Shown here: positions 2,586 through 62,751 of the stretch, piece after piece
Layout of the letters: each line of letters opens with the position of its first letter
Position numbering within the stretch: position 1 is the stretch's first letter
Assembly (NCBI GenBank): GCA_965215365.1
Contig: CBDCDS010000003.1
Span: forward strand, 632,383-696,382
Origin: Gammaproteobacteria bacterium
GTDB taxonomy: Bacteria > Pseudomonadota > Gammaproteobacteria > Eutrophobiales > Eutrophobiaceae
Length of the DNA: 64,000 nt
Reading direction: 5' to 3'
Notes under the pieces: model-generated
What the model was told of the DNA's origin: nothing
Databases searched by the model: none
Seen by the model: only the letters and a program-made list of their open reading frames with translations
Made by a program: the position numbers and the translations under genes

Positions 2586-2948
2586 TTGGGGGACAGAGGA
2601 ATCCCCTTAGAAAATCTGACGGGTTCGGAACATGACGACATCCTGGCAGGTGACCGGCGTGATAACTTTCTCATTGGCGGCGGCGGGCACGACACCTTCA
2701 AGCTCTCCACCGACCCGTTCTTTTATGCCTCGTGGCTCAACCAAGTGGAGCGATGGTTCGGACTCATCACGCAACAGGCTATCCGACGCGGCTCCTTCTC
2801 CTCAGTGAAACAACTTGTCAACAAAATCAACCAATTTGTGAACCACTACAATGATAACTCTCGCCCCTTCGTCTGGACTGCCACGGCTGAATCCATCCTC
2901 AACAAAGTAGAAAGATTATGCACAGTTATTTCCGGGACAGCACACTAG
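2586..2948 (+). pseudogene. mosaic remnant: an RTX-type Ca-binding repeat fragment (about 2586-2700) fused to an IS630-family transposase C-terminal fragment (about 2700-2948)
   Basis: N-terminal part carries GGxGxDxUx-like nonapeptides (LAGDRRDNFLIGGGGHDTFK). C-terminal part, SWLNQVERWFGLITQQAIRRGSF...YNDNSRPFVW, is the conserved end of IS630/Tc1 DDE transposases. No intact N-terminus is present. Confidence 0.55.
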
Positions 2949-3205
2949 AGGTGGCCATTCAAGCGGATTTATGCCCTTGTGCGGGTGCCGACCAGAGTTT
3001 TTCCAGTTGGTAATAGTCTCTGGTATCGGGGTGCATGACGTGGGCAATGACGTCGCCGAAGTCGATCAGAATCCACTCTGCCTGCTGCCGGCCTTCCACA
3101 CCCAGCGGTCTGATCTGCCGGGCCCGCGCCACCTCTATCACCTTGTCCGCAATGGCCTTGACCTGACGGTCGGAAGCGCCGCTAGCGATGATCATGTAAT
3201 CGGTC
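2901..3205. repeat. 305-bp direct repeat (left copy) flanking the IS1634-like element; identical to 5099-5403
   Basis: Base-for-base identity to 5099-5403 by direct reading. Contains the 3' end of the IS630 fragment and the 3' 78 codons of rsfS. Confidence 0.85.
2959..3195 (-). pseudogene. truncated duplicate of rsfS (C-terminal 78 codons only)
   Basis: Translation is identical to the C-terminus of the full rsfS at 5157-5495. It lies inside the 305-bp direct repeat. Confidence 0.8.
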
Positions 3206-5098
3206 CCGACTTCGACGGTCTGGTGCTTACTTTATCTGAAAATCTCTTGTAAATCAAAACGTGTTTTGGAGCAGGCAGTTGTAGTGCCTAGTTGATATTT
3301 GTAGCTTGACATTGTGGGCGGCGCGTGGTATCCTCCGGGCTATGTTCGTGCGCGTCAAAACCACCCCCAACAGCCCGCGTCAATCCGTACAACTCGTCGA
3401 GTCAGTGCGTGACGGCAAGGCCGTGCGCCAGCGCATTGTGCGCCATATCGGTATTGCCTTCGATGAAGACGAGCTCGTCCGGCTCAAAGACTTAGCCGAA
3501 GTGGTCAAAGCCAAACTTCAGGCCGAGACCCAGCCCGAGCTGTTCCCGCCCGAAGATGTCGCCGAGCAACTCAGCGCCGCCCGCGCCCGGCAGGACGACT
3601 CACCGCTGAAAGTCGAGCTCAAAGCCCTGCGGGAAACCCAGCGTGTCATCAGCGGCATCCATGCGGTGTACGGCGCCGTGTACGAGGACTTAGGGCTGTC
3701 CCGGTTGCTGCCAGCCTGGCGCTACCGGGCCTCGCACAAAGCGCTGTTCCATACGGTGATGGCGCGCCTAGCCAACCCGGACAGCAAACGGGCCAGTGTG
3801 CGCGCCCTGACAGCCGACTTCGGCGTGCAAGTGTCCCTGCCCCAAATCTACCGCATGATGGACTTGCTCGATGCGGCCTGTATCGAACGCCTCAATACCC
3901 TGGCCGAGACCCAAGCCCGGGCGCTGCTCGGCGGGCCGCTACGCGTGCTGTTCTTCGATTGCACCACCTTGTACTTTGAATCATTCACCGACGATGAGCT
4001 CAAACAACCCGGCTACAGCAAAGACGCCAAGTTCAAAGAATGCCAGGTGCTGCTGGCCCTGGCCGTCACCGACACCGGCCTGCCCGTGCGCTACACCGTG
4101 CTGCCCGGCGCCACCTTCGAGGGACACAGCCTCATCCCGGTGGTCAAAGCCTTACAAACCGACTGTCAGGCCGACAACGCCGTGGTCGTTGCCGACCGGG
4201 GGCTGCTGAGCAGGGATAACCTCAGCGCCTTAGAGGACGCCGGCCTGCACTACATCGTCGGTGCCCGACTCAAGTCCCTGCCGCACGCCCTGCAAACCCA
4301 AGTGCTCGATGAAGACCGCTATGAGACCCTGACAGATAGCGACGGACTGCGGGTGGCGGACCTACCCCACGACTCCCGCCGTCTGGTGGTGGGCTACTCC
4401 CCAGTGCGTGCCGAGAAAGACCGGCATGACCGCGACCAGGCCATCGCCAAGCTCCGTGAGAAACTGGCCAAAAGCCAAAACCCCAAAGACCTGCTCAACA
4501 ACTACGGTTATAAGAAATACCTCAAGGTAGACGGCAACAGTACCCTCAGCGTCAACCCCGATAAAATTGCCCAAGCACAACGCTGGGACGGCCTGCACGG
4601 GGTTATCACCAACCTGCCAACATCTACCACCGCCCCCGCCATCTTAAGCCAGTATCGCGGCCTGTGGCAGGTCGAAGATACCTTCCGGGTAAGTAAGCAC
4701 GATCTCAAGATAAGACCCATCTACCACTGGACCCCCCGACGCATCGAAGCCCACATCGCCATCGCCTTTATGTCCCTGCTCTGTGTCCGACACCTGCAAT
4801 ACCGCATGACCCTGCAAGCCAAGCCGGTCTCCCCCGAAGTCATCCGCAACGCGCTGGCCCACGTGCAGCACAGTGTCCTGACACATCAACAGACACACCG
4901 CCGCTACGTGATTCCCTCCGCCATCAGTGAAACCGCCCGGCGCCTCTACAAAATCATGGGATTGAGTCACTCCACCACCCCCTACGAGCTCAAATAGCCC
5001 GCCCCTGAGAACGCCGAAACAAGGCAATTGTAGTGCCTACGGGTCAACGCGCCTTCAATAAAATCAATCAGTTAGAGAAATAAACCGTCGAAGTCGGG
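3206..5098 (+). mobile_element. IS1634-like insertion sequence (IS4 superfamily), about 1.9 kb, with 14-15-bp terminal inverted repeats (CCGACTTCGACGGT)
   Basis: Left end cccgacttcgacggt and right end accgtcgaagtcggg are perfect inverted repeats. A single 563-aa transposase ORF lies inside. The element is flanked by 305-bp direct repeats. Confidence 0.75.
3306..4997 (+). CDS. DDE transposase, IS1634 family-like (IS4 superfamily)
   Basis: 563 aa. The N-terminus MFVRVKTT...SVQLVESVRDGKAVRQRIVRHIG resembles IS1634-group transposases. It sits between the IRs. Confidence 0.7.
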   Translation: MTLWAARGILRAMFVRVKTTPNSPRQSVQLVESVRDGKAVRQRIVRHIGIAFDEDELVRLKDLAEVVKAKLQAETQPELFPPEDVAEQLSAARARQDDSPLKVELKALRETQRVISGIHAVYGAVYEDLGLSRLLPAWRYRASHKALFHTVMARLANPDSKRASVRALTADFGVQVSLPQIYRMMDLLDAACIERLNTLAETQARALLGGPLRVLFFDCTTLYFESFTDDELKQPGYSKDAKFKECQVLLALAVTDTGLPVRYTVLPGATFEGHSLIPVVKALQTDCQADNAVVVADRGLLSRDNLSALEDAGLHYIVGARLKSLPHALQTQVLDEDRYETLTDSDGLRVADLPHDSRRLVVGYSPVRAEKDRHDRDQAIAKLREKLAKSQNPKDLLNNYGYKKYLKVDGNSTLSVNPDKIAQAQRWDGLHGVITNLPTSTTAPAILSQYRGLWQVEDTFRVSKHDLKIRPIYHWTPRRIEAHIAIAFMSLLCVRHLQYRMTLQAKPVSPEVIRNALAHVQHSVLTHQQTHRRYVIPSAISETARRLYKIMGLSHSTTPYELK

Positions 5099-5403
5099 AA
5101 CAAAGTAGAAAGATTATGCACAGTTATTTCCGGGACAGCACACTAGAGGTGGCCATTCAAGCGGATTTATGCCCTTGTGCGGGTGCCGACCAGAGTTTTT
5201 CCAGTTGGTAATAGTCTCTGGTATCGGGGTGCATGACGTGGGCAATGACGTCGCCGAAGTCGATCAGAATCCACTCTGCCTGCTGCCGGCCTTCCACACC
5301 CAGCGGTCTGATCTGCCGGGCCCGCGCCACCTCTATCACCTTGTCCGCAATGGCCTTGACCTGACGGTCGGAAGCGCCGCTAGCGATGATCATGTAATCG
5401 GTC
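5099..5403. repeat. 305-bp direct repeat (right copy) flanking the IS1634-like element
   Basis: Identical to 2901-3205. Confidence 0.85.
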
Positions 5404-13323: not shown

Positions 13324-14445
13324 TTGCCCTATAAACACAATACTATGAATATAACCTTAAATAGAGAACAACTGTTACCTGCCTTGTCTGATCTGAATGG
13401 TGTTGTTGAATCCAGGCCGGCCTTGGCAATTCTGGCCAATGTCCTGATCAATATTTCGCCCCAGGAAATCAGGCTGACGACAACAGATATGGAAGTTGAA
13501 CTTTCCGAAGCTATCCCAGGCGAGTTTGGAGAAACGGGGGAAATTACTGTTCCGGCGCGCAAGCTCTTGGACATTTGCCGGACTTTGCCGGAAGCCGCCG
13601 AGATCGCACTGACAGTTGAGGACGAACGGGTAAATGTGGCCTCTGGCAGAAGCCGATTCTCCTTGTTGTCACTGCCGGCACAGGAGTTTCCGAGAGTGGA
13701 ACCCGGCCAGACCGACGTCAGTTTTTCGTTATCGCAGGCGGTGTTCAAGTCGTTGCTGGAGCGTACCGCCTTTGCCATGGCTAGGCAGGATGTGCGCTAT
13801 TACCTGAATGGAGTCCTGTTGGAGGCGGAGGCAGGGCAGCTGCGCGCGGTCGCCACGGACGGACACCGGCTGGCCCTGTGTGAAGTTGACATTACGTTTC
13901 CCGCGGAGGAGAAAAAACAGTTAATCATGCCAAGGAAAGGCGTCATGGAGCTGCTGCGCTTGCTGCATGACTCGGAAGACGAGGTGGAAATCGTCATGAG
14001 CGGAAATCATATCCGCATTGTCAGGGGCGACCTGATCTTCACCAGTAAACTGATAGACGGCAAATACCCGGATTACAACCGGGTCATCCCGGCCCCGGCC
14101 CAACAGCCCGTGCTGGCCCAACGGGAGATATTGAAGCGGAGTCTCGGCCGCGCCTCAATACTATCCACCGACAAATACCGGGGGGTGAGAATAACGCTGG
14201 AAGAAAACAAACTCAGCGCAAACGTCCACAATCCTGAACAGGAACAGGCCGAGGACGAGATTGACGTCGAGTATTCGGGAGAGAAGCTGGAAGTCGGCTT
14301 CAACGTGAGTTATCTGCTTGACGCAGTCAGTATTATTCAGACCGACAAGGTAAAACTTTCCATCTCATCTCCGAAAAGCGGCTGTCTGGTATTGCCTGAG
14401 GAAGGCGAAGGGTGCAAGTACATCGTCATGCCGTTGATGCTTTAA
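13324..14445 (+). CDS. dnaN: DNA polymerase III beta sliding clamp (true start probably ATG at 13345)
   Basis: Full-length DnaN-like sequence (LSLLSLPAQEFP etc.). No dnaA is present upstream. Confidence 0.9.
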   Translation: MPYKHNTMNITLNREQLLPALSDLNGVVESRPALAILANVLINISPQEIRLTTTDMEVELSEAIPGEFGETGEITVPARKLLDICRTLPEAAEIALTVEDERVNVASGRSRFSLLSLPAQEFPRVEPGQTDVSFSLSQAVFKSLLERTAFAMARQDVRYYLNGVLLEAEAGQLRAVATDGHRLALCEVDITFPAEEKKQLIMPRKGVMELLRLLHDSEDEVEIVMSGNHIRIVRGDLIFTSKLIDGKYPDYNRVIPAPAQQPVLAQREILKRSLGRASILSTDKYRGVRITLEENKLSANVHNPEQEQAEDEIDVEYSGEKLEVGFNVSYLLDAVSIIQTDKVKLSISSPKSGCLVLPEEGEGCKYIVMPLML

Positions 14446-14493
14446 CCCGCATATCTCACCAAGTCACTTGTTTTAACACTGCTATCGCAGCCG

Positions 14494-15582
14494 ATGCGCA
14501 TTGAATGGCTGCACATCCGAAACGTTCGTAACCTGTCGGAACTGAGGTTAGAGCCGGCCGCCGGGCTTAACCTGATCTGTGGCCCGAACGGTAGCGGCAA
14601 GACGGCGCTGTTGGAAGCTATCTATTTTCTGGGGCGCTGTCGCTCATTTCGCACTGCCGCCATACAGCGGGTTATCCGCAACCAGCAACGCGCATTGCAG
14701 GTCAGCGCCGGATTGCTGCTTACCGATCAGCGTCGAATTGTTACGGGGGTGGAGCGCAGCCGGACGGCGCTCGATATCCGTTACAACAACACCACTGTGC
14801 ACAAGGTGTCCGAACAGGCAGCGCAGCTCCCCGTTATTACAATTATTCCGGAAAGCCACAGACTGGTTTCTGGCAGCCCGATATACCGCAGACGCTGGTT
14901 GGACTGGGCCATGTTTCACGTGGAACCACACTATATCAATCTCTGGCGGGACTATTACAAGGCGTTAAAACAGCGCAACAGCTTGCTTCGCTCGAACAGG
15001 GTCGAACAACTGGGTGCATGGGAACAAGCCATGGCGCGTGCCGCAGAAGCTATGACCGCACAGCGTACCGGCTTTATCGACGAACTGGCGGTGGCTATGA
15101 GCGCAGCCGCCCGGCGCTTGCAGATTGCACAAACTACGCTGGAATATGAGTGTGGTTGGCAGGCAGACACTGAGTTAGCCTCATTCCTCGCAGAGCAACG
15201 CAAAGGCGATCAGGAAAGAGGCACAACGCGACAAGGACTGCACCGCAGCGATATGACCATCCACCACGAGGGGAGGGAAGTCGGGCATTTTTATTCACGC
15301 GGGCAGATTAAGCTGTGCATTATTGCACTGTCGCTGGCCCTGGATAGTGTGTTCAGGAAGCGCACCGGGCGCATCCCGCTGATCTTGGCGGACGACCTGC
15401 CGGCGGAGTTGGATCAGAACAGCTTGCTGCGCGTTGTGGATGGATTGGCCGGGCAGGGGAGTCAGGTTTTCATCACTTCAACAGACTCGATTCCGGCAGT
15501 TTCACAGCATCCGCTAAAATTGTTTCACGTGGAACAGGGGCAGATTACCGACTCGGTGTTGTCCGGGTTCAGAAACAAGTGA
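14494..15582 (+). CDS. recF: DNA replication and repair protein RecF
   Basis: Walker A GPNGSGKT. RecF family; conserved position after dnaN. Confidence 0.9.
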   Translation: MRIEWLHIRNVRNLSELRLEPAAGLNLICGPNGSGKTALLEAIYFLGRCRSFRTAAIQRVIRNQQRALQVSAGLLLTDQRRIVTGVERSRTALDIRYNNTTVHKVSEQAAQLPVITIIPESHRLVSGSPIYRRRWLDWAMFHVEPHYINLWRDYYKALKQRNSLLRSNRVEQLGAWEQAMARAAEAMTAQRTGFIDELAVAMSAAARRLQIAQTTLEYECGWQADTELASFLAEQRKGDQERGTTRQGLHRSDMTIHHEGREVGHFYSRGQIKLCIIALSLALDSVFRKRTGRIPLILADDLPAELDQNSLLRVVDGLAGQGSQVFITSTDSIPAVSQHPLKLFHVEQGQITDSVLSGFRNK

Positions 15583-21669: not shown

Positions 21670-21884
21670 GGGGCTGCACTCCTTGGTTATGAATGGGAGT
21701 CACAGCATGGCAGTCAGGGTCGGTGGAGTTCAAGTCGATGACAGGCATAAAACGACTGTTTATTAAGTTGTATCAATGAGTTATGATGCACGAACAAGGT
21801 TTTCTTGGGACACTAGTGAGGCGGCCTCTAAAAATCAGGGAATTATATACGATAGCGCCGAACCGCTATCAAGACCGATATTGG

Positions 21885-25297: not shown

Positions 25298-25319
25298 ATT
25301 CTTTGATATTGCATAAGAT

Positions 25320-25385
25320 CACCTCTCACAAACACGAGGTGACTGTGCAGCACAGGGATGTGTTGCCAGTAACTGCAATCATGTC
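25320..25385. repeat. REP-like hairpin (CACCTCTCACAAACACGAGGTG) plus adjacent conserved module
   Basis: The same hairpin recurs at 27971-27992 and, as its complement, at 55985-56006. Confidence 0.7.
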
Positions 25386-25450
25386 AGTGGCCTGTTAAGT
25401 GCCCCTATAGCGGAATCCGTGTATAATACACCAGTTTAAGCCGCCGTGCA

Positions 25451-26014: not shown

Positions 26015-26033
26015 CGAACACGGCACTATTTCT

Positions 26034-26077
26034 GGGAACCTCTAAAAATACCCTCCGTGGTATTTTTAGAGGTTCCC
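26034..26077. repeat. REP-like perfect hairpin GGGAACCTCTAAAAATACC-CTCCGT-GGTATTTTTAGAGGTTCCC
   Basis: 19-bp perfect inverted repeat with a 6-nt loop. Family members are at 31509, 37969, 41221, 45211, 50189, 55794 and 56838. Confidence 0.8.
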
Positions 26078-26080
26078 ATC

Positions 26081-26380
26081 ACTTATTGAGAGCCATCATG
26101 TTTCACAAGGCAACAAGCGACTGGGTGAGATCTGCGGGATAGCCCGCATATCTCACCGAGTGATGCGAAGATCGCGCCGGATTGGTTCTGCCTGCGGGTG
26201 CCTGCGACCGAAACCATAGTGGTTCTCTGGTTGAGGAAGCACGTGCCTGCAGGCAGAACCAAGACCCGCGAGGGCGCATCAAGCGCAGTGGGTTATGGGG
26301 AAAGAGTAGCAGTATGATCATCACTTATTGAGAGCCATCATGTTTCACAAGGCAACAAGCGACTGGGTGAGATCTGCGGG
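26081..26380. repeat. MITE-like element, inverted orientation: 58-bp terminal partial copy plus one full 238-bp copy separated by ATAG; ends 17 bp before the bcp start codon
   Basis: Reverse complement of the 239-bp unit at 31690-31928, with terminal inverted repeats CCCGCAGATCTCACCCAGT / ACTGGGTGAGATCTGCGGG. Confidence 0.8.
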
Positions 26381-26397
26381 CTAAGGGTGACGCGACT

Positions 26398-27945: not shown

Positions 27946-28115
27946 AGGTATTTCCTGTCAGCCTTAAGGCCACCTCTCACAAACACGAGGTGACCTTAAA
28001 CTTTATCATAACCTCAAAAAATGATTGAAGCCAATACTGTACACCGCATCGACCAGACCGGGCTGGCCTGGAGTCCGGTTGCAGGGAGGCGCGCCGGCTC
28101 AGCGGGGGATAGCCA

Positions 28116-41161: not shown

Positions 41162-41255
41162 CAAAAAAACTCCCCCAGGCCCATGAAATAGGCTTGAAAA
41201 TGCGATATGGTTAGCTCTGAAAATACCACGGAGGGCATTTTCAAATGGTTCCGGT

Positions 41256-45210
<3,955 letters not shown>

Positions 45211-45285
45211 GGGCGCCTCTAAAAATCAGAGGTGCCTTTACAGCATTATGGATATGCTGCCAGTAACAGCAAGCACGCACCTCAT
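45211..45285. repeat. REP-like hairpin (GGCGCCTCTAAAAATCAGAGGTGCC) plus conserved module immediately after the gyrB stop
   Basis: Member of the same repeat family as 26034 and 55794. Could also serve as a terminator hairpin. Confidence 0.65.
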
Positions 45286-49604: not shown

Positions 49605-50199
49605 TACCGGCGTCGGCAAAACCCGGGTCACGTTGGCGCTGATGGCGGCCTGGCAGGCGCGCGGGTGGGTGGTGAACGGCATGAAGCCGGTTGCCAGCGG
49701 CAGCGAGTGGCGCCACGGGCGTCTGGAAAACGAGGACGCGCGCCTGATTCACGCGCAGTGCAGCCTGCCGGTTAGCTACGAACAGGTGAATCCGTACGCG
49801 TTGGCCGAGCCAATCGCCCCGCATATTGCCGCAACCAAGGCCGGGATCGAGGTTGAACCGGACACCTTGGTTGCGGCCTACCGTTGCCTGACGGCCGGGG
49901 CCGACCGGGTGGTGGTGGAAGGGGTCGGCGGCTGGCGGGTGCCGCTGGCACCGGGGCTACAAACTGAAGATCTGGTGCGGTCTCTGGACCTGGCTGTAGT
50001 GCTGGTGGTCGGGCTGCGTCTGGGCTGCATCAACCATGCTTTACTTACCATGGAGGCCATAAGCGCCGCCGGGGCGCCTTGCGCCGGGTGGCTGGGCAAC
50101 AGCATCTGCCGTGACTATGCCGAGCAGCAGGCCACCCTGGACTATCTGCGCGACCAGCTGCCGGCACCTTGCCTGGGGTTCATTCCGTGGCATTTTTAG
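49576..50199 (+). CDS. bioD: dethiobiotin synthetase
   Basis: P-loop GTDTGVGKT. 207 aa. Confidence 0.85.
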   Translation: MTNIFITGTDTGVGKTRVTLALMAAWQARGWVVNGMKPVASGSEWRHGRLENEDARLIHAQCSLPVSYEQVNPYALAEPIAPHIAATKAGIEVEPDTLVAAYRCLTAGADRVVVEGVGGWRVPLAPGLQTEDLVRSLDLAVVLVVGLRLGCINHALLTMEAISAAGAPCAGWLGNSICRDYAEQQATLDYLRDQLPAPCLGFIPWHF

Positions 50200-50208
50200 A
50201 GGTTCCCG

Positions 50209-53154
50209 TTAATCTATCCCATCAATAAACGTATCAATATATGACATAATCCGGCTGACGATACGCTCGCCAACTGTACGTCTTTCCCGGAGCCTGGGTT
50301 GTTGGTCCATAATCCGGATGACGTCAGCCGGTAAAGGCCTTCTGCTGGTGTACAGGCAATTAGCGATCACCTTGTCTAATCCATCCCGGTCTAGTCCCTC
50401 CTCCGCGCATAGCGACTGCAGGGCTTGTTGCCGTTGTGCTGACAGGTATTGTGCAAACGCGTGGTTAACGTCTCCATTCTGCGGCAGTGTCGGCACCTGT
50501 TCTTCAATGAAGCGTTGTATCAGTTCTTGCTTGCTGCGCAGTTCGGGTTCATTCTCCAACGTGCTGATAATCGCCTGCACCTGTCGGTGGTATGCGTCCG
50601 GTTTGGCTTGGCGCAGTCTGATGACCAGCTCGAGGATGTAGCTGACGTTGATGTTATCTCTGTGGATCAGCTCCACCTCAAAGTCGATATCGTCCAGTAT
50701 GGATACTGTTTCCTTCTGCCGGTCGGTCTTTACCTTGTCGTTCAAATCCAGGTATTTGCTCTTGTAGTCCGCAAAGGTCTGTTGCTCCAGGGCCAGCTCA
50801 GCAAAATCAAATTCGGTGAAGCCAGTCAGTACGTTCATAAGACGCAAGAGATTCCTGAACGCCTTAATAAAGGCAAGCTGCTCTGCCTCCTGTTGTAGTG
50901 TGTCAACACAATCTGGCGTGGCCGCGATGCCAAGCAGCGCCGCCACGGCGTCATTGAACCGTTTAAGGTATGCCTGGTAAGGTTCAAGGGTGATGGTGTC
51001 AACCGCCTCCTTGTCGGCAAACAGCGCGATGGCTTCGTCCGTGGCCGGTTTCAGGTTCCGATAACAGACGACATTGCCGTGTGACTTTTTCGAACCCAGG
51101 ATGCGATTGGTACGGGAGAACGCTTGCACCAGGCCGTGGTATTTCAGGTTTTTGTCCACGTAGATGGTATTGAGCCACTTGCTGTCAAACCCGGTCAGAA
51201 ACATATTCACCACCAGCAGGATATCAATGCCGGCGCCCGTGCGTCGGTTTTTGTCCCGATACCGGACTCGTTTACCGATGTCTCTGTAATAGTCGTAGAA
51301 GGTGTCGGTTTTATAGTTCGTGCCGTACGCCTTGTTGTAATCCCTGATGCAGTGCTCCAGCCGCGCCCGGCTGTGCCGGTCGGTGTACTGGCGGGAACTG
51401 TCGGCGGGATCATCGGCGCCGTAGGCTGCTTCCTGGTCTCGCACCCGGTTCTCATCCTCGGCCCGGCCTGGTACACTCCCCGACCCCGCCGCCATGCCGG
51501 CGAAGTACGTATCGGCAACATCGCTCACCTCGCGGTCTTCCTCATTGGCCTGCCAGGAAAATATGGTTGCTATGTTGAGGTCATGCGTGCCGGCCTCCCG
51601 TTTGCGCCTGAACAGGTCGTAATACTTGAGCAAAGTCCTGATATCGGCAACGCAAAATAGCGCGTTGAACACGCGGCCATGAGTCTTGCCGTCATGGTGG
51701 GCGATGATGTGATCGACGATGGCCTCAAGACGTTCTGCCGCGGCCAGCGCCTCGGCGGTGTCTATCGCCTCCACCCGGATATCCGCCCGGTTGTGCTGCC
51801 GGTCTTTGAAAGTGCCGATATATTCAATGGAAAACCGCAGTACATTCTCATCGTTAATCGCATCCGTGATGACGTACTTGTGCAGACACTCGCCAAACAG
51901 ATCTGTGGTGGTGCGCTTGCCATACTCATTGCCCAGCGCATTCTCGGCAAAGATGGGGGTGCCGGTGAAGCCGAACAGCTGCGCTTTGGGGAAGTGGTCG
52001 CGGATACGCTTATGGGTGTCGCCAAACTGGCTGCGGTGGCATTCGTCAAAAATGAATACCATGCGCTTGTCCCGCAACGGTGTCATGGTGGTTGCATGGC
52101 GGCGCTTGTGAATGGCGTTGTTTAACTTCTGCAAGGTGGTGACAATCAACCTGGTATCATCGCCGAATTGTTCTACCAGCCTGGTGGTATTGTCGGTCCC
52201 GTCAACGCTGCCTTTTTTATAGCTGTTGAAGTCCTGGATGGTCTTGTAGTCCAGATCCTTCCGGTCCACCACGAACACCACCTTGTGGATGCCGGAGGTG
52301 CCGGTGAGGATTTGCGCCGCCTTGAACGACGTCAGTGTTTTGCCGGACCCGGTAGTATGCCAGATATAGCCGAACCGGTCGGAAGTCCTGACCCGCTCGA
52401 CAATCGCCTCCACCGCATGATACTGATACTGGCGCAGCGCCAGCAGCAGCTGGTCGGTTTCGTTCAACACCACGTATTTTGTAACGAGCTTGGACAGCTG
52501 GCACGGCTCCAGGAAAGTATCGGCAAACTCGCTGAGTTGCGTGATACGCCGGTTCTCCCGGTCGGCCCAGAAAAACGTTTGCTTGAAGTCGCGCTGTTTG
52601 ATCGGGTTGTTGGCGTAATATTTGGTATTGACGCCGTTGCTGAGCACAAACACCTGAATGTATTCGAACAACCGCCATCCTGCCGAATAGGAATGACGCT
52701 GGTAACGGTTGGTCTGGTTAAAGGCCTCCTTGAGCGCCAGGCCGCGGCGTTTTAACTCTATCTGTGCCAGCGGCAGGCCATTGATGAGCAAGGTCACGTC
52801 ATAGCGATTCCGGTAGCTGCCCGCCATCTCCAGCTGTTGGGCCACCTGAAACTCGTTCTTGCACCAGTTGATCTGATCGACCAGTTCCAGATACCCGACC
52901 TCGCCGTCGTCCCTGTGGTAGTCCAGCTTGGCCCTGAGCTTTTTGGCTTTGTCGAAGATATTGCCTCCGGAGAGCGCTACCAGGATGTTTTGAAATTCCT
53001 TGTCGGACAGGGTGATGCCGTTGTGCTGCTGCAGTTGTGTTTTCAGGTTGCCGACCAAGTCGTCCTCATTGCGGAGAAGGACATGCTCGTAACCCAGGGC
53101 TTGCAGCTGGACAACCAGTTTCTGTTCCAGAACCGCTTCTGATTGGGTGGCCAT
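50209..53154 (-). CDS. hsdR: type I restriction enzyme R subunit
   Basis: 981 aa with TGSGKT, DECHR and helicase motifs. Confidence 0.9.
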   Translation of the reverse strand: MATQSEAVLEQKLVVQLQALGYEHVLLRNEDDLVGNLKTQLQQHNGITLSDKEFQNILVALSGGNIFDKAKKLRAKLDYHRDDGEVGYLELVDQINWCKNEFQVAQQLEMAGSYRNRYDVTLLINGLPLAQIELKRRGLALKEAFNQTNRYQRHSYSAGWRLFEYIQVFVLSNGVNTKYYANNPIKQRDFKQTFFWADRENRRITQLSEFADTFLEPCQLSKLVTKYVVLNETDQLLLALRQYQYHAVEAIVERVRTSDRFGYIWHTTGSGKTLTSFKAAQILTGTSGIHKVVFVVDRKDLDYKTIQDFNSYKKGSVDGTDNTTRLVEQFGDDTRLIVTTLQKLNNAIHKRRHATTMTPLRDKRMVFIFDECHRSQFGDTHKRIRDHFPKAQLFGFTGTPIFAENALGNEYGKRTTTDLFGECLHKYVITDAINDENVLRFSIEYIGTFKDRQHNRADIRVEAIDTAEALAAAERLEAIVDHIIAHHDGKTHGRVFNALFCVADIRTLLKYYDLFRRKREAGTHDLNIATIFSWQANEEDREVSDVADTYFAGMAAGSGSVPGRAEDENRVRDQEAAYGADDPADSSRQYTDRHSRARLEHCIRDYNKAYGTNYKTDTFYDYYRDIGKRVRYRDKNRRTGAGIDILLVVNMFLTGFDSKWLNTIYVDKNLKYHGLVQAFSRTNRILGSKKSHGNVVCYRNLKPATDEAIALFADKEAVDTITLEPYQAYLKRFNDAVAALLGIAATPDCVDTLQQEAEQLAFIKAFRNLLRLMNVLTGFTEFDFAELALEQQTFADYKSKYLDLNDKVKTDRQKETVSILDDIDFEVELIHRDNINVSYILELVIRLRQAKPDAYHRQVQAIISTLENEPELRSKQELIQRFIEEQVPTLPQNGDVNHAFAQYLSAQRQQALQSLCAEEGLDRDGLDKVIANCLYTSRRPLPADVIRIMDQQPRLRERRTVGERIVSRIMSYIDTFIDGID

Positions 53155-53168
53155 ACAGATGACCCGCG

Positions 53169-54401
53169 TTAAATAAACATTTGCTGCAACAGCCCCTGCT
53201 TGAAGAAGCAGGCCTGTTCGACCTGTTTCGCTACCAGTTCTATTTTCCGGTCGATGGCGGAGAGGAAATTGGCGATTTTTTGTTGTTCACATTTTGAGGG
53301 TATGCTTAATTTGAGGAATCTGAGATGAGAAGCATATAAATGAATAACCGATATTCCCTGCGCCAATCTGGCTATATCAGCCTTCTTATAATTCAAATAA
53401 TACGCAAGAAACACCCCGTTTTCCTGGCAGCGAATTATGTTTATGTCACCTCCCAGCGCAACCCCGTCAAGCCTTACACAAGCGGCGGTTGCTATGTCTG
53501 ATGCAATCTCGCCGGATGAGGGAATAATGACATCGTTTTTGTTGCTCAATTCCAGCTGAGAAGGTGGGATATTAGTGCTCGAAATTACCAGGGAAATTGT
53601 AGTTCCATAGTGGGTGTAGAGTTCCCCATACCTGATACACTTTAATTCTCCATTTGTTACGACATCGCTCTTTGAAATTCCTTTACCCTTACTTATCTTT
53701 GAAATATCACCCAATGATTTCTCCTCCCAATCCGGATAATCCCTCCCATCCTCATCCTTGAACCGAATTTCCTGACTGAACAGTTTTTGCATCATGCCTT
53801 GCTTGTACTGTTCCAGCAGCGACTGCTTCCGGCTCAGTTGCTCAATTTTGATATCAACCGCCGACAGGAAAGCAGCGATTTTTTGTTGTTCTCTTATAGC
53901 CGGAATACATAGTGGGATCTTTTTGATCTCACTCTTGCTTATTTCAAGGAAGGTAGAACCATTTGCTCTACGCAAAAAATGCTTTTTGTTTGCAAGAAGC
54001 CAATAGTAAAGATACTCATTTGAGAACATTGAGTCATTTACAATAAACGACTGAAACCCCTGGTTTGTTGTGCAGACTTCACGAGCAATGCTGACCTCGC
54101 CTATTGTTGCCCTGCTGGTGAATAAAATTGTCCCAACAGGCAGTAAGGCAGCAGAGGATTGAGCAATACCTTCCCTGGTTATTTTGCGGATACTGCCAGT
54201 AGCATATTTCGTCTTGATTTCTGTCGGAGTGAACCAGTTTATATCACCGTCCCATAAGCTCCTCTTGCCAGTGCTGGGGGTGCCACCCCCAACAATATCT
54301 CCGACATGATCCAACTTTTTCATCTCCCAATCCGGATAATCCCCCCCATCCTCATCCTTAAACCGCAACGCCGGCACGCGTTGTTGTTGTGCTGTAATCA
54401 T
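53169..54401 (-). CDS. hsdS: type I restriction-modification S (specificity) subunit
   Basis: 410 aa with two target-recognition domains, each preceded by the conserved repeat RFKDEDG(G/R)DYPDWE. Confidence 0.85.
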   Translation of the reverse strand: MITAQQQRVPALRFKDEDGGDYPDWEMKKLDHVGDIVGGGTPSTGKRSLWDGDINWFTPTEIKTKYATGSIRKITREGIAQSSAALLPVGTILFTSRATIGEVSIAREVCTTNQGFQSFIVNDSMFSNEYLYYWLLANKKHFLRRANGSTFLEISKSEIKKIPLCIPAIREQQKIAAFLSAVDIKIEQLSRKQSLLEQYKQGMMQKLFSQEIRFKDEDGRDYPDWEEKSLGDISKISKGKGISKSDVVTNGELKCIRYGELYTHYGTTISLVISSTNIPPSQLELSNKNDVIIPSSGEIASDIATAACVRLDGVALGGDINIIRCQENGVFLAYYLNYKKADIARLAQGISVIHLYASHLRFLKLSIPSKCEQQKIANFLSAIDRKIELVAKQVEQACFFKQGLLQQMFI

Positions 54402-54659
54402 TCGCTCACGTTAATCAGGACATCGGGCAGGTGGCGCATGGACAGGATTACTCAGAATCAATATGCTCATTATTACGGACGTGATGACAATCAGTGGGCG
54501 CATGATAATTTCAATCATGTTTTTCCTCTGATGATCGGGCTAACGCTGAAATCGCTGCCATTATGGCGAATGGGATTGCGATATGCAAATCTACCATCCC
54601 TTTGATTTTCAGGCCGGTAACGGTATAGTAAATCTACCCTCAATAAGCATTAAAGAGAT

Positions 54660-55043
54660 ATGAACCTGCATGTGACTATTCCTGAGAGCAAGGCGTTGGC
54701 GGCTTTTTGCCTAGAGAACGGTATCATAAAGCTGGCTGTTTTCGGCTCAGCCCTGCGCGAGGATTTCAACGCGGAAAGTGATATTGACCTGTTGGTCAAG
54801 TTCAGGCCTGAGGCCGCTGCTGACTTGTTCAAAATGGCTGGAATTGAAATTGCCCTTTCTCCATTGTTTGGCGGACGCAGTATCGACCTGCGCACGCTGG
54901 AGGAGCTGAGTCCCTACATCAGAGGTAGAGTACTTAACGACGCAATATTACTGGTAGATATTGCTGCGTCGGAAGACGAAGGGAGTAAAGTAAGGCATGA
55001 CCATTCCAGCGCGGCCGATGTGATAACCCATGTCCATCATTGA
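54660..55043 (+). CDS. MNT-domain nucleotidyltransferase (MntA-like antitoxin of a HEPN/MNT pair)
   Basis: GSALRED...SDIDLLV (GSx10DxD nucleotidyltransferase motif). Confidence 0.75.
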   Translation: MNLHVTIPESKALAAFCLENGIIKLAVFGSALREDFNAESDIDLLVKFRPEAAADLFKMAGIEIALSPLFGGRSIDLRTLEELSPYIRGRVLNDAILLVDIAASEDEGSKVRHDHSSAADVITHVHH

Positions 55044-55413
55044 TGACAATACCCGGTTACGGCACATGCTGGACGCAGGATGTGAAGCTATTGAAATGAG
55101 TAAGGGTAAAAGTCGAAATGATTTGGCCAATGATCGTAAGCTGTCCTTAGCATTGGTGAAGCTTTTGGAGACTGTTGGAGAGGCTGCGTATAAGGTGTCA
55201 CAGGAAAAAAGACTTGAACTTGATCAAATTGAGTTTGAAAAGATCATCAAAATGCGTCATCGGCTTGTCCACGACTATTTCGACATTAACTACGGCGTTA
55301 TCTGGAATACGATACAAAATAGCCTGCCTGAATTGGTGAGGCAACTTCAAGAGCTGCCCGAATGCAGCAATGATATGGTGCCTGCCTCATCGATGCCTTT
55401 AGATAAATGGTAG
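55030..55413 (+). CDS. HEPN-domain protein (HepT-like toxin)
   Basis: RHRLVHDY (the Rx4-6H HEPN motif). Overlaps the MNT gene by 14 bp. Confidence 0.7.
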   Translation: MSIIDDNTRLRHMLDAGCEAIEMSKGKSRNDLANDRKLSLALVKLLETVGEAAYKVSQEKRLELDQIEFEKIIKMRHRLVHDYFDINYGVIWNTIQNSLPELVRQLQELPECSNDMVPASSMPLDKW

Positions 55414-55454
55414 TGGAGACACCTGTGAGTCCTGGTTGCGCTCCCCGGTCATAC

Positions 55455-55612
55455 CGACTATCAGGTGGCATTGCGGGAAATAGAAACCCTGATGACGGCC
55501 CGGCCGGATTCGCCCGAGGGTGGAAAACTGGATGTGTTGACGACACTGGTCGAAGCATACGAGCGCAGGCATTATCCTCTGGAGCTACCCGATAATGAAC
55601 TGCCGCGCTAGC
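55455..55612 (+). pseudogene. HigA-like antitoxin N-terminal fragment (about 90% nt identity to 56494-56640)
   Basis: Encodes ...[46 protein letters not shown] then an immediate stop. The HTH domain is missing. Confidence 0.7.
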
Positions 55613-55793
55613 GCTGTTCGCAGTCCAGCAGATAATCATCTACCGCTTCCTTGAAGGCCTGTTCAAGTTGTTCTACGTTTTGACCTTCATAGCTGACCAG
55701 CGGTTCAATAAATTCCAACTTCCCGAAAAGACAATTATCCTCTATGCTGGCTTGTACGGAACCGTAAAAGCCCTTGTAACTGAATAAACTCAT
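55608..55793 (-). pseudogene. truncated hicB (first 60 codons only, identical to 57611-57790)
   Basis: Identical N-terminus to the full hicB. It diverges and stops at the junction with the higA fragment. Confidence 0.7.
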
Positions 55794-56014
55794 GGGAACC
55801 TCTAAAAATACCCTCCGTGGTATTTTTGCTGTGTAAATTTTGAAGATTTACATACTGGCGGGGTGTGCAGCGCTCTGATCATGAGGGTTTAGAGACGGAA
55901 ACGAAAAAGTATGATTTTTCGTTTCCTTCATTTTCAAGCACTTACGTGCTTGCTGTTACTGGCAGCACATCCCTGTGCTGCACGGGCGCCTCGTGTTTGT
56001 GAGAGGCACCCTCA
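55794..56014. repeat. full-length composite REP-like element (about 220 bp) made of several hairpin modules
   Basis: Contains all hairpin modules seen individually elsewhere (26034, 37969-38118, 25320, 45211). Confidence 0.75.
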
Positions 56015-56145
56015 TAACATTTTCGCTCGAATAAGATGGTCTGAATTATGATGTGGCACAACCTTATTTGCAACTACAAATGAGTTACTGTTGTAATTTC
56101 CGGTATCGCTGGTTAGAATAGTCCCGATTTAGGACATATTGGATT

Positions 56146-56448
56146 ATGAGAATTATTGCGCTCTCCACACTAAAGCAGTTCTGGGAGCGGAATGTTGCAT
56201 ACATGGATGCTGCGGAGCCGGTCCGGGTCTGGTATCGGCGCGTGTTACGGGCTGATTGGGCGTCTCCTTCTGACGTCAAACGGGATTTTGGCAATGCCAG
56301 CATCCTGAAGGATGGACGGGTGGTGTTTAACATAGCAGGCAACAAGTATCGATTGGTGGTATGGATCAATTACGCCTACCGTGTGGTTTACATAAGGTTT
56401 ATCGGTACCCATAACCAATATAACCAAATCGATGCACAGGCGATTTAA
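56146..56448 (+). CDS. higB: HigB-family toxin (RelE/ParE superfamily)
   Basis: 100 aa with VVFNIAGNKYRLVVWINYAYRVVYIRFIGTH. Directly upstream of an XRE-type HigA. Confidence 0.75.
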   Translation: MRIIALSTLKQFWERNVAYMDAAEPVRVWYRRVLRADWASPSDVKRDFGNASILKDGRVVFNIAGNKYRLVVWINYAYRVVYIRFIGTHNQYNQIDAQAI

Positions 56449-56451
56449 TCC

Positions 56452-56838
56452 TTGGAAAAACAGTTGATGGATGTCAAACCTATCAGAACAGATACCGACT
56501 ACCAGGCGGCACTGCGGGAAATAGAAACCCTGATGACGGCCCGGCTGGATTCGCCCGAGGGTGAAAAACTGGATGTGTTGACGACACTGGTTGAAGCGTA
56601 TGAACGCAAGCATTATCCTTTGGAGATGCCCGATGCGATAGCGGCTATCAGATTTGAAATGGAACAACAGGGATTGAAGGCAAAAGACTTGGAACCGATG
56701 ATTGGGAAGCGAAACCGCGTTTATGAAGTGTTGAACGGGAAACGTTCCCTCACGCTGAAAATGATCTGGCGTCTGCATGAGCAGTTGGGCATCCCCGCCG
56801 AATCGTTGATTAAGCAGCCTTCCCGGCCTGGTAATTAA
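56452..56838 (+). CDS. higA: HigA-family antitoxin (XRE helix-turn-helix)
   Basis: 128 aa with a C-terminal HTH (KDLEPMIGKRNRVYEVLNGKRSLTLKMIWRLHEQLGI). Confidence 0.75.
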   Translation: MEKQLMDVKPIRTDTDYQAALREIETLMTARLDSPEGEKLDVLTTLVEAYERKHYPLEMPDAIAAIRFEMEQQGLKAKDLEPMIGKRNRVYEVLNGKRSLTLKMIWRLHEQLGIPAESLIKQPSRPGN

Positions 56839-56872
56839 AGGCCACCTCTAAAAAATTAGAGGTGGCCGTGCA

Positions 56873-57434
56873 GCAGTACCCTCAGCGTCAACCCCGATAA
56901 AATTGCCCAGGCACAACGCTGGGACGGCCGGCACGGCGTCATCACCAACCTGCCGACATCCACCGACACGACCGCCATCTTAAGCCAGTACCGCGGCCTG
57001 TGGCAGGTCGAAGACACCTTCCGGGTAAGTAAACACGACCTCAAGGTCAGACCCATCTACCACTGGACCCCCCGACGCATCGAAGCGCACATCGCCATCG
57101 CCTTTATGTCCCTGCTCTGTGTCCGACACCTGCAATACCGCATGACCCTGCAAGCCAAGCCCGCATCCCCCGAAGTCATCCGCAACGCGCTGGCCCACGT
57201 GCAGCACAGTGTCCTGACACATCAACAGACACACCGCCGCTACGTGATTCCCTCCGCCATCAGTGAAACCGCCCGGCGCCTCTACAAAATCATGGGGTTA
57301 AGTCACTCCACTACCCCCTACGAGCTCAAATAGCCGGTCGCTGAGAACGCCGAAACAAGGCAATTGTAGTGCCTACGGGTCAACGCGCCTTCAATAAAAT
57401 CAATCAGTTAGTGAAATAAACCGTCGAAGTCGGG
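56873..57434 (+). mobile_element. truncated copy (3' 562 bp including the right IR) of the IS1634-like element
   Basis: About 97% identical to 4538-5098. The 5' truncation point abuts a REP hairpin at 56838-56870. Confidence 0.8.
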
Positions 57435-57454
57435 AGAATGATCCGGCCAACGCG

Positions 57455-57790
57455 CTAGCGCTGTTCTACGGCTCGTTCAATGGACAGCTTGACGAATTCG
57501 TTCAGGTTGAGATTGTTTTCTTTTGCGGTGATGAGCGCATGCCTGTGCAATTCCGGGCTGATACGCACATTAAATGAGCCTCTGCATGGCTTGGCAGGCT
57601 CCCTGCCAAGCTGTTCACAGTCCAGCAGATAATCATCTACCGCTTCCTTGAAGGCCTGTTCAAGTTGTTCTACGTTTTGACCTTCATAGCTGACCAACGG
57701 TTCAATAAATTCCAACTTCCCGAAAAGACAATTATCCTCTATGCTGGCTTGTACGGAACCGTAAAAGCCCTTGTAACTGAATAAACTCAT
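57455..57790 (-). CDS. hicB: HicB-family antitoxin with a C-terminal ribbon-helix-helix
   Basis: 111 aa. N-terminus MSLFSYKGFYGSVQASIEDNCLFGKLEFI is HicB-like. The C-terminus is CopG/RHH-like. Confidence 0.75.
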   Translation of the reverse strand: MSLFSYKGFYGSVQASIEDNCLFGKLEFIEPLVSYEGQNVEQLEQAFKEAVDDYLLDCEQLGREPAKPCRGSFNVRISPELHRHALITAKENNLNLNEFVKLSIERAVEQR

Positions 57791-58035
57791 AACATTTTCG
57801 CTCGAGTCAGTTTGTTTACGACCAATTTGATTGCATATCGTTTCAGCTCGTTGTCAGGGTGCGGGCGATGCAAGTTGATTGTATCGTCCGGGTTGCCATT
57901 ATCGAATTTCACCCTTGAGCCGTCCCCCTTAATCTCCTTGTAGTCCAGTGCTTTCAATAACGTTACCAGTTCATTCCAGGTAACAGCCTGCCTGCCATGC
58001 AGCAATTTAGCTTTCAATTTATCACGCTTTCCCAT
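57787..58035 (-). CDS. hicA: HicA-family mRNA interferase toxin (start at MGKRDK; ORF track extends it to 58071)
   Basis: LLKALDYKEIKGDGSRVKF...NLHRPHP are HicA/YcfA motifs. 4-bp overlap with hicB. Confidence 0.7.
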   Translation of the reverse strand: MGKRDKLKAKLLHGRQAVTWNELVTLLKALDYKEIKGDGSRVKFDNGNPDDTINLHRPHPDNELKRYAIKLVVNKLTRAKML

Positions 58036-58148
58036 GGCCTGAATTATGATGTAGCAAAGCCTTATTTGCAACTATAAATCAGTTACAAGACCCAGTAAGC
58101 CTCGGGAAATAATCGAGCGGAGGATCGGGTCAGAACCGAGCCAACCGG

Positions 58149-59738
58149 TTAAAACGGGCTGTCTATCCCCAGTTCCCGGCAGTATCCTGCGATAGTACCA
58201 TCTGTTGCCTGCATAGCTTGCTCCAGGGTTTTCAGTTGTTTGGACACGGCGGTGATATCAACCGGCTCCTCTTCCTCAAAAGTATCCACGTAGCGTGGAA
58301 TGTTCAGGTTGAAGTCGTTCTCCCTGACCTGGCCTAAAGTGGCGACACTGGCATACTTGTCGATGGCTTCACGGTTTTTGTAAGACTCAATGATCCGGTC
58401 CACATGCGCATCGGTCAGCACATTCTGGTTGCCCGCCTTGTCATAATGCTGTGAGGCGTCGATAAAGAGGATATGGTCATCCTGTTTGCGGCATTTTTTC
58501 AGTACCAGGATACAGGTTGGGATACCGGTGCCATAAAACAAATTGGCCGGCAGGCCGATGACAGCATCGAGATAGTTCAGTTGTTCAATGATATAGCGCC
58601 GGATTGTGCCTTCCGCCGCGCCTCGGAACAGTACGCCGTGTGGCAGCACCACGGCCATGGCGCCGTGCTCTGCAAGCTGGTAAATCATGTGCTGCACAAA
58701 GGCGAAATCAGCTTTGCCTTGCGGCGCCAGTTTACCGTATTGGCTGAAACGTTCATCGTGCGCGTGCAGCGGATTGCTGTCGCCTCGCCACTTGGCGGAA
58801 AACGGTGGGTTGGCAACCACCGCCTCAAAGCGCATATCCTGGTGCTGAGGTTTGTCCAGGGTATCCTCCTGACGGATGTCAAACCGGTCAAAATGCACGC
58901 CATGGAGGATCATGTTCATGCGCGCCAGGTTGTAGGTGGTGCGGTTGAGTTCCTGTCCGTACAGCTCAATCAGGACCTCATCACCCGCCCGGGCTTGTGC
59001 TCTGGCCTCCTTTTCGATGCGCAGCAGCAGTGAGCCGGAACCACAAGTGGGGTCATAGGCATTGCGGATGCGCTCCCGGCCTGAGGTGACGAGCCTGGCA
59101 AGTATCTTCGACACCTGTTGCGGCGTATAGAATTCCCCGGCCTTCTTGCCGGCGCCGGATGCAAACTGACCGATCAGGTATTCATAGGCGTCGCCCAGAA
59201 TGTCTGCATTGGCTTGCTCAGGGCCGAAATCGATACGGTTCAGATTCGCCATGATGTTAACGACCAGTTTATTGCGGTCATCGACCTCCCGACCCAGCTT
59301 GCTGCTGTCTAGGTTCAGGTCTTCAAACAGGTTGTTGAAATCGTCGGCGCTGCCCGTTTGACTGGCGGAGGCCTCGATGTTTTTGAAGATCGCTTTCAGA
59401 TCGCCGATGATATGGGTGTCCCGTTCCTCAGCGGCCCCCTGGCCTTTCGCTATGACTGCGGAAAATGTCTCATCAGGTGCCAGAAAATAGCCCAGCCGTT
59501 GCAGCGATTCATCCTTGATGGCCGCAATATCCTCGGCATCTGTGACCTGGTAATAATCCTTTACCTCCTCGGTTTCCAGCAGTTCATTGGCTAACGCATA
59601 TTGCCTTTCCGACAGATATTTGTAGAAAATGAACCCGAGGATGTAATCCTTGAACTCATCTGCATCCATCTTGCCGCGCAGGTCATTGGCGATATTCCAG
59701 AGTTGTCTTTCCAGCGCTTGCTTCTGTGCTGCTGTCAT
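58149..59738 (-). CDS. hsdM: type I restriction-modification methyltransferase subunit
   Basis: 529 aa with NPPF motif IV and N6-adenine MTase motif I. HsdM N-terminal domain. Confidence 0.9.
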   Translation of the reverse strand: MTAAQKQALERQLWNIANDLRGKMDADEFKDYILGFIFYKYLSERQYALANELLETEEVKDYYQVTDAEDIAAIKDESLQRLGYFLAPDETFSAVIAKGQGAAEERDTHIIGDLKAIFKNIEASASQTGSADDFNNLFEDLNLDSSKLGREVDDRNKLVVNIMANLNRIDFGPEQANADILGDAYEYLIGQFASGAGKKAGEFYTPQQVSKILARLVTSGRERIRNAYDPTCGSGSLLLRIEKEARAQARAGDEVLIELYGQELNRTTYNLARMNMILHGVHFDRFDIRQEDTLDKPQHQDMRFEAVVANPPFSAKWRGDSNPLHAHDERFSQYGKLAPQGKADFAFVQHMIYQLAEHGAMAVVLPHGVLFRGAAEGTIRRYIIEQLNYLDAVIGLPANLFYGTGIPTCILVLKKCRKQDDHILFIDASQHYDKAGNQNVLTDAHVDRIIESYKNREAIDKYASVATLGQVRENDFNLNIPRYVDTFEEEEPVDITAVSKQLKTLEQAMQATDGTIAGYCRELGIDSPF

Positions 59739-62494: not shown

Positions 62495-62613
62495 GGTCGG
62501 GCAGCGGCTGCCAAGCCCCCGTAGTAGCCGCAGGGAACCATCTGAAAGTGCCCGCAGTGGCATTTTCAGGAGTGGCCTGTACCTCTTTCCGCCCAGTCCT
62601 GACTTGTTGAATA

Positions 62614-62751
62614 CGTTGTATTGCTATCGCTGAACTCGTTACAATTCTATCGCTGTATGCGTTACAATTCTATCGCTGAACTCGTTGCATTTCTATCGCT
62701 ATGTGCGTTACAATTCTATCGCTGTATGCGTTACAATTCTATCGCTGATTA
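62614..62751. repeat. 23-bp direct tandem repeat x6 (consensus CGTTACAATTCTATCGCTGNANN)
   Basis: Six consecutive 23-bp units read directly from the sequence between mnmG and the downstream ATPase gene. Confidence 0.8.

Follow-up and report, generated by a model that had tools for sequence, protein, structure and literature searches.

The 64,000-nt stretch of gammaproteobacterial DNA analysed here (the window) holds dnaN-recF (13324–15582) and gyrB (42769–45210), which lie about 27 kb apart. The region between them is occupied by transposases (an rve_3 fragment and IS66- and IS4-family members) together with genes for a DNA methylase and an endonuclease VII-like protein, which suggests heavy mobile-DNA insertion into the usual dnaN-recF-gyrB cluster. 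Downstream of mnmG/gidA, a 23-nt unit (TGTATGCGTTACAATTCTATCGC-like) is repeated six times in tandem at 62608–62748; the repeats may be part of the replication origin region. A low-G+C island (47–53% against ~60%) extends from 50209 to 59738 and carries type I restriction-modification genes (hsdR, hsdS, hsdM) amid MntA/HepT, HigBA, one intact HicAB pair and one broken one; a remnant of the repeat described below lies at its edge, at the end of bioD. OZ241347.1, a 3.52-Mb chromosome of an uncultured gammaproteobacterium, is a sister genome, with ~89–93% identical DNA in the orthologous regions that were compared. The island is absent from the sister species, where DUF2244 and cytochrome oxidase genes come next after bioD.

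The window also contains an IS1634-family element, whose transposase gene (3306–4997) stands between perfect 305-bp direct repeats at 2901–3205 and 5099–5403. These repeats resemble the long target duplications of IS1634 and IS1549, which have been reported as unusually long (PMC2266710). A second copy of the family is present as a 576-bp 3' fragment at 56860–57435.

Short palindromic sequences recur throughout the window. The preliminary description had read them as a dispersed, mostly intergenic hairpin repeat family built as a mosaic of independent modules. Related sequence was detected at every position listed there, far above chance, and the family as such was confirmed. The mosaic was not: all the modules turned out to be parts of one fixed 151-nt non-coding element and of its deletion products. 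The element is bounded by terminal inverted repeats GGnnnCCTCTAAAAAT, its right end being the inverse of the left end, and its consensus reads GGTAACCTCTAAAAATGCCCTCCGTGGCATTTTTAGAGACGGAAATGAAAAAGTGTGATTTTTCATTTCCTTCATTTTCAAGCACTTACGTGCTTAAAAATGGCAGCATATCCTTATGCTGCACGGCCACCTCTAATTTTTAGAGGTGGCC. Alignment of 40 distinct full copies, including the one at 37968 in the window, gave a mean column identity of 94% over 151 nt, and both ends were conserved across the alignment. The left end (GGTAACCTCTAAAAAT) and the reverse complement of the right end (GGCCACCTCTAAAAAT) agree at 13 of 16 bases. Five different hairpins follow one another in a constant order, the first and the last of which contain the terminal inverted repeats; the four modules reported earlier correspond to hairpins 1, 2, 4 and 5. 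Variants range from 28 to 729 nt, and their sole internal additions are hairpin modules or tandem repeats. The element itself carries stop codons.

The recurrence could be quantified by simple searches. The 22-mer core of hairpin 1 (AAAATRCCCTCCGTGGYATTTT) has four exact occurrences in the window, with 0 expected. For the end motif GGNNCCTCTAAAAAT, nine matches were counted when one mismatch was allowed, against 0.04 expected. Repeat finding joined 55794–56014, 37962–38119, 26028–26071, 25322–25389, 31505–31554, 41207–41271, 45210–45246 and 56837–56866 into the same set. A profile was then made from 41 full copies and used to scan the window, where about 12 element loci were located in the 64 kb: two full copies and around ten shortened or broken ones.

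The first full copy (55794–56011, plus strand, 218 nt) belongs to a local subfamily and is inserted in a duplicated hicAB cassette, where the hicB start meets the hicA stop. The composite had been given as 55794–56014; it is real, but the element ends at 56011, and positions 56012–56015 are the right-hand TCAT duplication, matching the one at 55790–55793. Profile matches cover 55794–55827 and 55888–56009. The gap between them is filled by a nested 60-nt miniature element on the plus strand (55828–55887, beginning GCTGTGTAAATTTTGAAGATTTACATA...), inserted after GGTATTTTT in hairpin 1. The second full copy (37968–38118, plus strand) is a canonical 151-nt element in ccsB, flanked by TTCA and TGCA, and it matched the profile over its full length with E = 1.5e-52. 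An 85%-identical inverted copy had been reported at 37969–38118. We found 84% identity with the composite when the nested 60-nt insert was left out, but the orientation is direct.

The shortened copies fall into several forms. A 44-nt short form at 26034–26077 (plus strand; profile match 26034–26071) consists of hairpin 1 and the element's last 6 nt. It no longer has the target duplication on its right, and it adjoins a copy of a second, 243-bp repeat family at 26077/26078. A decayed short form (41209–41252, minus strand; profile match 41215–41248) is located in the divergent pfk/M48-peptidase intergenic region, and a probable, strongly decayed one with 3 mismatches (62533–62577, plus strand) lies downstream of mnmG/gidA, where the profile match was weak (62537–62569, E = 0.0018). 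A solo terminal hairpin of 28 nt with the variant loop TCACAAACAC (27968–27995, no strand assigned) is flanked by TTAA on both sides, between the divergent AI-2E transporter gene and the gene at 28116. The deletion derivative at 31509–31554 (plus strand; profile match 31517–31554) joins the left inverted repeat to positions 94–131, is truncated at its right end and stands 25 nt upstream of the start of a sigma-70-family (rpoH-like) gene.

The remaining copies are fragments. On the minus strand, 25319–25389 is a 3' fragment (model positions 83–149) some 20 nt upstream of where dapA starts, and 45211–45264 is a right-end fragment (positions 99–151) directly after the gyrB TAA stop. Another right-end fragment on the same strand (56840–56876, positions 116–151) begins 1 nt after the TAA stop of a higA-like gene and is fused to an internal point of the IS1634-family fragment at 56860–57435. 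The profile matched all three minus-strand fragments over these coordinates. On the plus strand, the loop and right arm of a short form lie at the bioD end (50184–50207, weak profile match), and a terminal-hairpin remnant (GGCGGCCTCTAAAAATCAGGG) at 21820–21840 is separated by 36 nt from one end of an IS4-family element.

To see how far the family extends, a 22-mer scan was carried out with one genome per species. It returned at least 91 stretches, of which at least 66 were separate 8-kb blocks in OZ241347.1, spread along the length of the chromosome. These 66 blocks (528 kb) contain 83 exact 22-mer matches and 119 element loci. Confinement of the motifs to the window, the outcome named beforehand as fatal to a repeat family, was thus not what we found: the family is genome-wide in the related chromosome. 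A near-identical strain was also recovered (L092, 98.9% identical to the window over 11.5 kb). In the JGI metagenome collection the element was present in only five contigs from one project, all of them plain copies. Some of the related contigs come from sponge-metagenome bins. No Rfam family matched the element, the plasmid collection gave no match, and we found no published description of this sequence family. The family, which is abundant in a group of uncultured Gammaproteobacteria, seems to be undescribed, while the type of element is an ordinary one of a known kind.

The flanks of the copies revealed a clear signature of mobility. Among 64 bounded copies, 44 have a perfect 4-bp flank duplication, and 12 more match at three of the four positions. 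When the flanks were re-paired at random, 5 pairs were identical on average and never more than 13, and duplication lengths of 2, 3 and 5–8 gave just 0–3 matches. The 20 bounded copies that have no perfect duplication count against an interpretation as a MITE (miniature inverted-repeat transposable element). The duplicated sites are AT-rich (TTAT 14, TTAA 8, ATAA 6, TTTA 4, TATA 3); since TTGC, GGAT, GTCT and AACA also occur among them, these are true duplications and not element sequence.

Empty counterparts were found for three insertions. The first is within the window, where the duplicated hicAB cassette has a single TCAT at 57787–57790 (...AACTCATAACATTTTCGCTCGA... at 57780–57805); in the filled hicB/hicA junction, TCAT-element-TCAT occupies 55790–56015 and is followed by AACATTTTCGCTCGA. 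The second is a sister-species locus (L093) in which ccsB is unbroken and reads ...CATTGCAAAC..., in the wider context ...GGCGTGCATTGCAAACAGTCGATTACC...; the window ccsB reads ...GGCGTTCATTTCA, continues with the element between its TTCA and TGCA flanks, and resumes with TGCAGGCAGCCGATTACC.... The third involves strains of the sister species, two of which (L102 and L103) read ...AACAGATGATTACAAT..., while a third (L101) carries a 229-nt copy at the AGAT site. These three comparisons of filled and empty sites show insertion directly.

The inverted ends, the 4-bp target duplications and the empty sites together imply transposition as a MITE, by a cut-and-paste or copy-and-paste route, and not a REP. 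Every MITE-defining feature testable here is present in the element, the identification of the parent IS excepted. We consider it very probable that the scattered hairpins all represent one MITE, in intact, shortened or disrupted copies, and that it is mobilised by a transposase cutting with a 4-bp stagger. The element would be mobilised in trans, with cuts at AT-rich tetranucleotides (TTAT, TTAA, ATAA, TATA, TTTA and others), and the staggered cutting would leave the 4-bp target-site duplications.

Placement of the copies was consistent with such targets. After in-silico excision, only 12 of 56 junctions fell in a coding-like open frame, as compared with 71% of random positions, and the copies are thus strongly intergenic. 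In a ~60% G+C genome, AT-rich tetranucleotide targets would lie mostly between genes and at stop and start codons; this target preference and selection against gene hits suffice to account for the intergenic placement. The repeats had also been said to sit where terminators would be expected. This held in part: with genes called roughly, 27 of 62 full copies have the 3' end of a gene no more than 100 nt away and 9 copies abut a stop codon, but 35 of the 62 are near no 3' end and are located in 5' or divergent regions, and orientation relative to the neighbouring gene showed no bias (12 same, 6 opposite). In the window, copies lie 3' of gyrB, bioD, the higA-like gene, an ACT-domain gene and gidA, and others just upstream of start codons (dapA, rpoH-like, pfk/M48). 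A scan of the consensus returned one terminator-like stem with a T-run per strand, in invariant columns. Judging from these stems, a terminator role is possible for full copies, although it does not determine where the copies sit.

The structure of the element is unusually well kept. All five helices are retained, with 99% of the cells paired in the alignment. Changes on both sides were found for 12 of 55 pairs (0–2 pairs in slid controls), amounting to 76 cells as compared with 19 in shuffles and 0–5 in slid controls, and one pair of the terminal hairpin occurs in all four Watson–Crick combinations without a mismatch. Folding of the composite gave z = -6.7. The swaps are nearly all from one Watson–Crick pair to another, with hardly any G-U intermediates, which suggests that symmetry is maintained in the DNA itself. 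This could reflect a requirement at the ends, palindrome correction or derivation from a small number of master copies; selection on an RNA fits less well. Such preservation is not needed by a purely selfish element, and it may indicate a structural role or structure-dependent transposition. In the more specific version of this idea, which draws on the double substitutions with hardly any wobble intermediates and on the failure to find an IS with matching ends in ~0.7 Mb, the five hairpins would be kept as perfect DNA palindromes. The family would then be mobilised by an unrecognised transposase that reads hairpin or cruciform ends yet produces 4-bp duplications, or it would have been domesticated as a bidirectional terminator and IS110-type landing pad; we regard this version as unlikely.

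Also unlikely is that the host selects the structure itself, for instance as an intrinsic terminator working in both directions or as a 3' structure that stabilises mRNA, in a domesticated MITE whose mobility is incidental or past. The compensatory changes in all five helices, the terminator-like stems and T-runs in invariant parts of both strands, the folding score and the 27 copies close to 3' ends would all fit this explanation. The lack of orientation bias and the 35 copies away from 3' ends speak against it. In addition, one copy interrupts ccsB within the resB-ccsB operon, other copies immediately precede start codons, and Watson–Crick swaps with hardly any G-U intermediates are a better match for a DNA palindrome or for a small number of master-copy lineages.

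REP/BIME-type palindromes, spread by a REP-associated tyrosine transposase (RAYT) and assembled as mosaics, were the original reading and are a very improbable one: the elements are indeed palindromic, multi-copy, mostly intergenic, clustered with other repeats and entered by IS110-family ISs, but they are fixed 151-nt units with inverted-repeat ends and five different hairpins instead of alternating REP orientations, they are flanked by variable 4-bp target duplications (perfect in the 44 of 64 copies) where REPs make none, they have empty sites, and they lack a conserved GTAG-type 5' tetranucleotide. IS110-family elements also target REPs. A Pfam scan of 48 window ORFs gave no Y1 transposase (Y1_Tnp); for six others, NCBIfam alone was used. 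REP/BIME elements make no target duplication and insert next to a fixed tetranucleotide, and their unit is a single imperfect palindrome of 20–40 nt assembled in alternating orientations; the present element departs from them on both counts. What it shares with them is the form of short intergenic palindromes, the behaviour as recombination and IS-insertion hotspots, and possible transcript 3' structures; REPs, unlike this element, lack a unit enclosed by terminal inverted repeats. They rely on a Y1 transposase.

Within the MITE interpretation, the shortened forms could be traced to specific sequences. Copies would decay through deletion between short internal direct repeats. The 44-nt short form equals positions 1–38 plus the last 6 nt of the element, as would result from a deletion between the direct repeats ATTTTTAGAG at positions 29–38 and 136–145, leaving the hairpin alone. 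In the sister species a full copy occupies the pfk/M48 site at which the decayed 44-nt form stands in the window (41209–41252). A deletion between TAAAAATG repeats would similarly give the form at 31509, in which position 17 is joined to 94, and microhomology deletions into neighbouring DNA would shorten further copies. Enlargement was also observed: longer variants have extra hairpin modules at one internal point (L014, L031, L080), and one copy (L055) contains seven to eight tandem 60-nt modules. The family offers a clean natural data set for MITE decay by internal-repeat deletion.

Copies would donate stop or start codons to genes, as in bioD and ccsB. The claim that a copy supplies the bioD stop was borne out. 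The window bioD product has 207 aa, as compared with 221–235 aa in its homologues, and is 14 residues short; its end reads ...ATTCCGTGGCATTTTTAGAGGTTCCC, and the last residues, P-W-H-F, together with the TAG stop (50197–50199), are encoded by the element's right arm. Another 9 nt on comes the stop codon of hsdR. In the sister species, bioD continues as ...ATGCCGTGGCTGGCACATTTTGAC..., and a short-form copy with TTCA duplications lies 38 nt past the stop. The motif CCGTGGC occurs both in bioD and in the loop/stem of the element, and a deletion between the two would have fused bioD to the right arm.

The overlap noted at the 5' end of ccsB (called ccsA in the preliminary description) is real and is in fact an intragenic insertion. 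The 37968 copy splits the gene at about codon 20, within the resB-ccsB operon, and cuts off the first 19–20 codons. In-silico excision of the element and one duplicated 4-mer restored an ORF colinear from residue 1 with homologues of 387–392 aa, the closest intact one (P0001) being 93% identical. The remaining ccsB is open and in frame with two ATGs of the element, one at 38022 and one in the loop of the terminal hairpin (AATGTTT, near 38104). The AATGTTT loop was found in none of the other 39 aligned copies, most of which have AATTTTT. The terminal-loop ATG may serve as the ccsB start. The stored gene call of the near-identical strain (L092, 4876–6000) starts ccsB at this ATG, and at another locus (L050, 4785–6956) a long ORF, which we take to be (probably) SpoT, begins inside a MITE copy. 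The element systematically gives false or altered 5' gene ends. For the annotation of these uncultured genomes, the family accounts for a large share of the intergenic repeats; it explains false 5' ORF extensions, the truncated bioD and the split ccsB, and it marks sites of strain rearrangement.

The copies were also associated with other insertions and with breakpoints. In OZ241347.1, two different IS110-family elements (Pfam DEDD_Tnp_IS110 and Transposase_20) are located inside MITE hairpins, at fixed points (L010, 1573–3358; L029, 7263–8000; L056, ~3900–5300). The 60-nt miniature element lies at the same point, after GGYATTTTT, in at least eight MITE copies, the window composite among them, and it has its first 9 nt (GCTRTGTAA) and its insertion point in common with an IS110-family IS. 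Comparison of L092 with the window showed a break in synteny inside the 45211 copy; in addition, this fragment opens a ~455-nt block that is absent from the sister species, in which gyrB and a comF-like gene overlap. Truncated copies are fused to the IS1634-family fragment at 56876 and to the second repeat family at 26077. The suggestion that the repeats are IS targets and recombination hotspots, found at junctions with truncated ISs, is supported by these insertions and junctions: IS110-family elements land in the copies, and the copies act as rearrangement breakpoints. The family shows how IS110-family elements use MITE hairpins as targets.

We searched for an autonomous element with the same ends in ~0.7 Mb (the window, the 66 OZ241347.1 blocks and 13 other loci), and none was present. 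Paired-end candidates with ends 0.4–4 kb apart and equal 4-nt flanks gave four matches, which enclosed housekeeping genes, an IS110 insertion or a tandem-repeat variant and no parent. Inspection of split copies with long inserts and of multi-copy segments of at least 500 bp returned only IS110- and IS1634-family elements. The transposases of the window belong to the IS1634, IS4 and IS66 families, besides the rve_3 fragment; as possible parents, the IS1634-like element (ends CCCGACTTCGACGG) and the IS4-like element (ends TAAGTATTTGATACA) were rejected, their ends being unrelated to those of the MITE.

The 4-bp duplications and GG termini would point to a DDE enzyme, such as one of the IS5 group or IS701. 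In the ISfinder classification, the IS5 family includes an IS5 group with 4-bp duplications, GG termini, YTAR-like targets and a DDE_Tnp_1 transposase. Judged by these general features of the group, the 4-bp duplication, the GG-starting termini and the TA-centred targets of the MITE (TTAA, TTAT, ATAA, TATA) fit. IS701 duplicates 4 bp and ISH3 duplicates 4–5 bp (PMC2266710), but the MITE end GGTAACCTCT does not match the IS701 end consensus (---YACT-Y--YR, PMC2266710). The likeness to IS701, ISH3 and the IS5 group is a lead to the parent and not a result.

Among described systems, the family behaves like known bacterial MITEs, including the QMITEs of Coxiella (PMC10969869, PMC4596501, PMC5896051). 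It changes no general picture of bacterial repeats and would be no surprise to a specialist. The Correia elements (CREE/NEMIS) found in Neisseria have a TA duplication, 26-bp inverted repeats and an IHF site. They are likewise MITEs of ~100–160 nt with terminal inverted repeats, mostly intergenic, present in hundreds of copies and in both full-length and internally deleted forms. The present family differs in duplicating a variable, AT-rich 4 bp, in its unrelated ends (GGnnnCCTCTAAAAAT) and in its five separate hairpins, and there is no sequence similarity between the two. Correia elements have been reported to carry promoters and to form a hairpin RNA that is cleaved by RNase III (PMC10969869); this MITE family has sequence features that would allow similar promoter or RNA effects.

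A further likeness is to the pneumococcal BOX, RUP and SPRITE repeats and to BrickBuilt of Porphyromonas gingivalis, which also consist of hairpin modules and have internal modules added or tandemly amplified. Modular repeats of the pneumococcal type cluster and insert into one another (PMC10969869), and a MITE with an internal minisatellite has been described (PMC4596501). Hosts, sequences and target duplications are different in our case; here the terminal hairpins contain the inverted repeats, and a lone hairpin of 28–44 nt is a bounded copy with its own duplication.

Two other repeats were observed alongside the family. In several Treponema MAGs, another multi-copy repeat, detected at no fewer than 14 loci, holds an identical 22-nt hairpin (AAAATGCCCTCCGTGGCATTTT) between unrelated flanks (GGGATAAAATGCC...GGCATTTTATCCCGCAAGTTTTC...); it gave no Rfam match for the two loci tried, and the identity may be a coincidence or may result from a shared constraint. 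In the second MITE-like family of the window the unit is 243 bp long, with TTAACCCGCAGATCTCACCCAGT at one end and the inverse sequence at the other. It was located at 26077–26386, 31686–32255 (2.3 tandem units), 14441–14473, 34540–34594 and 35900–35932, and at 341–464 of L092. This family is polymorphic, since L092 carries an extra copy at window position ~33752.
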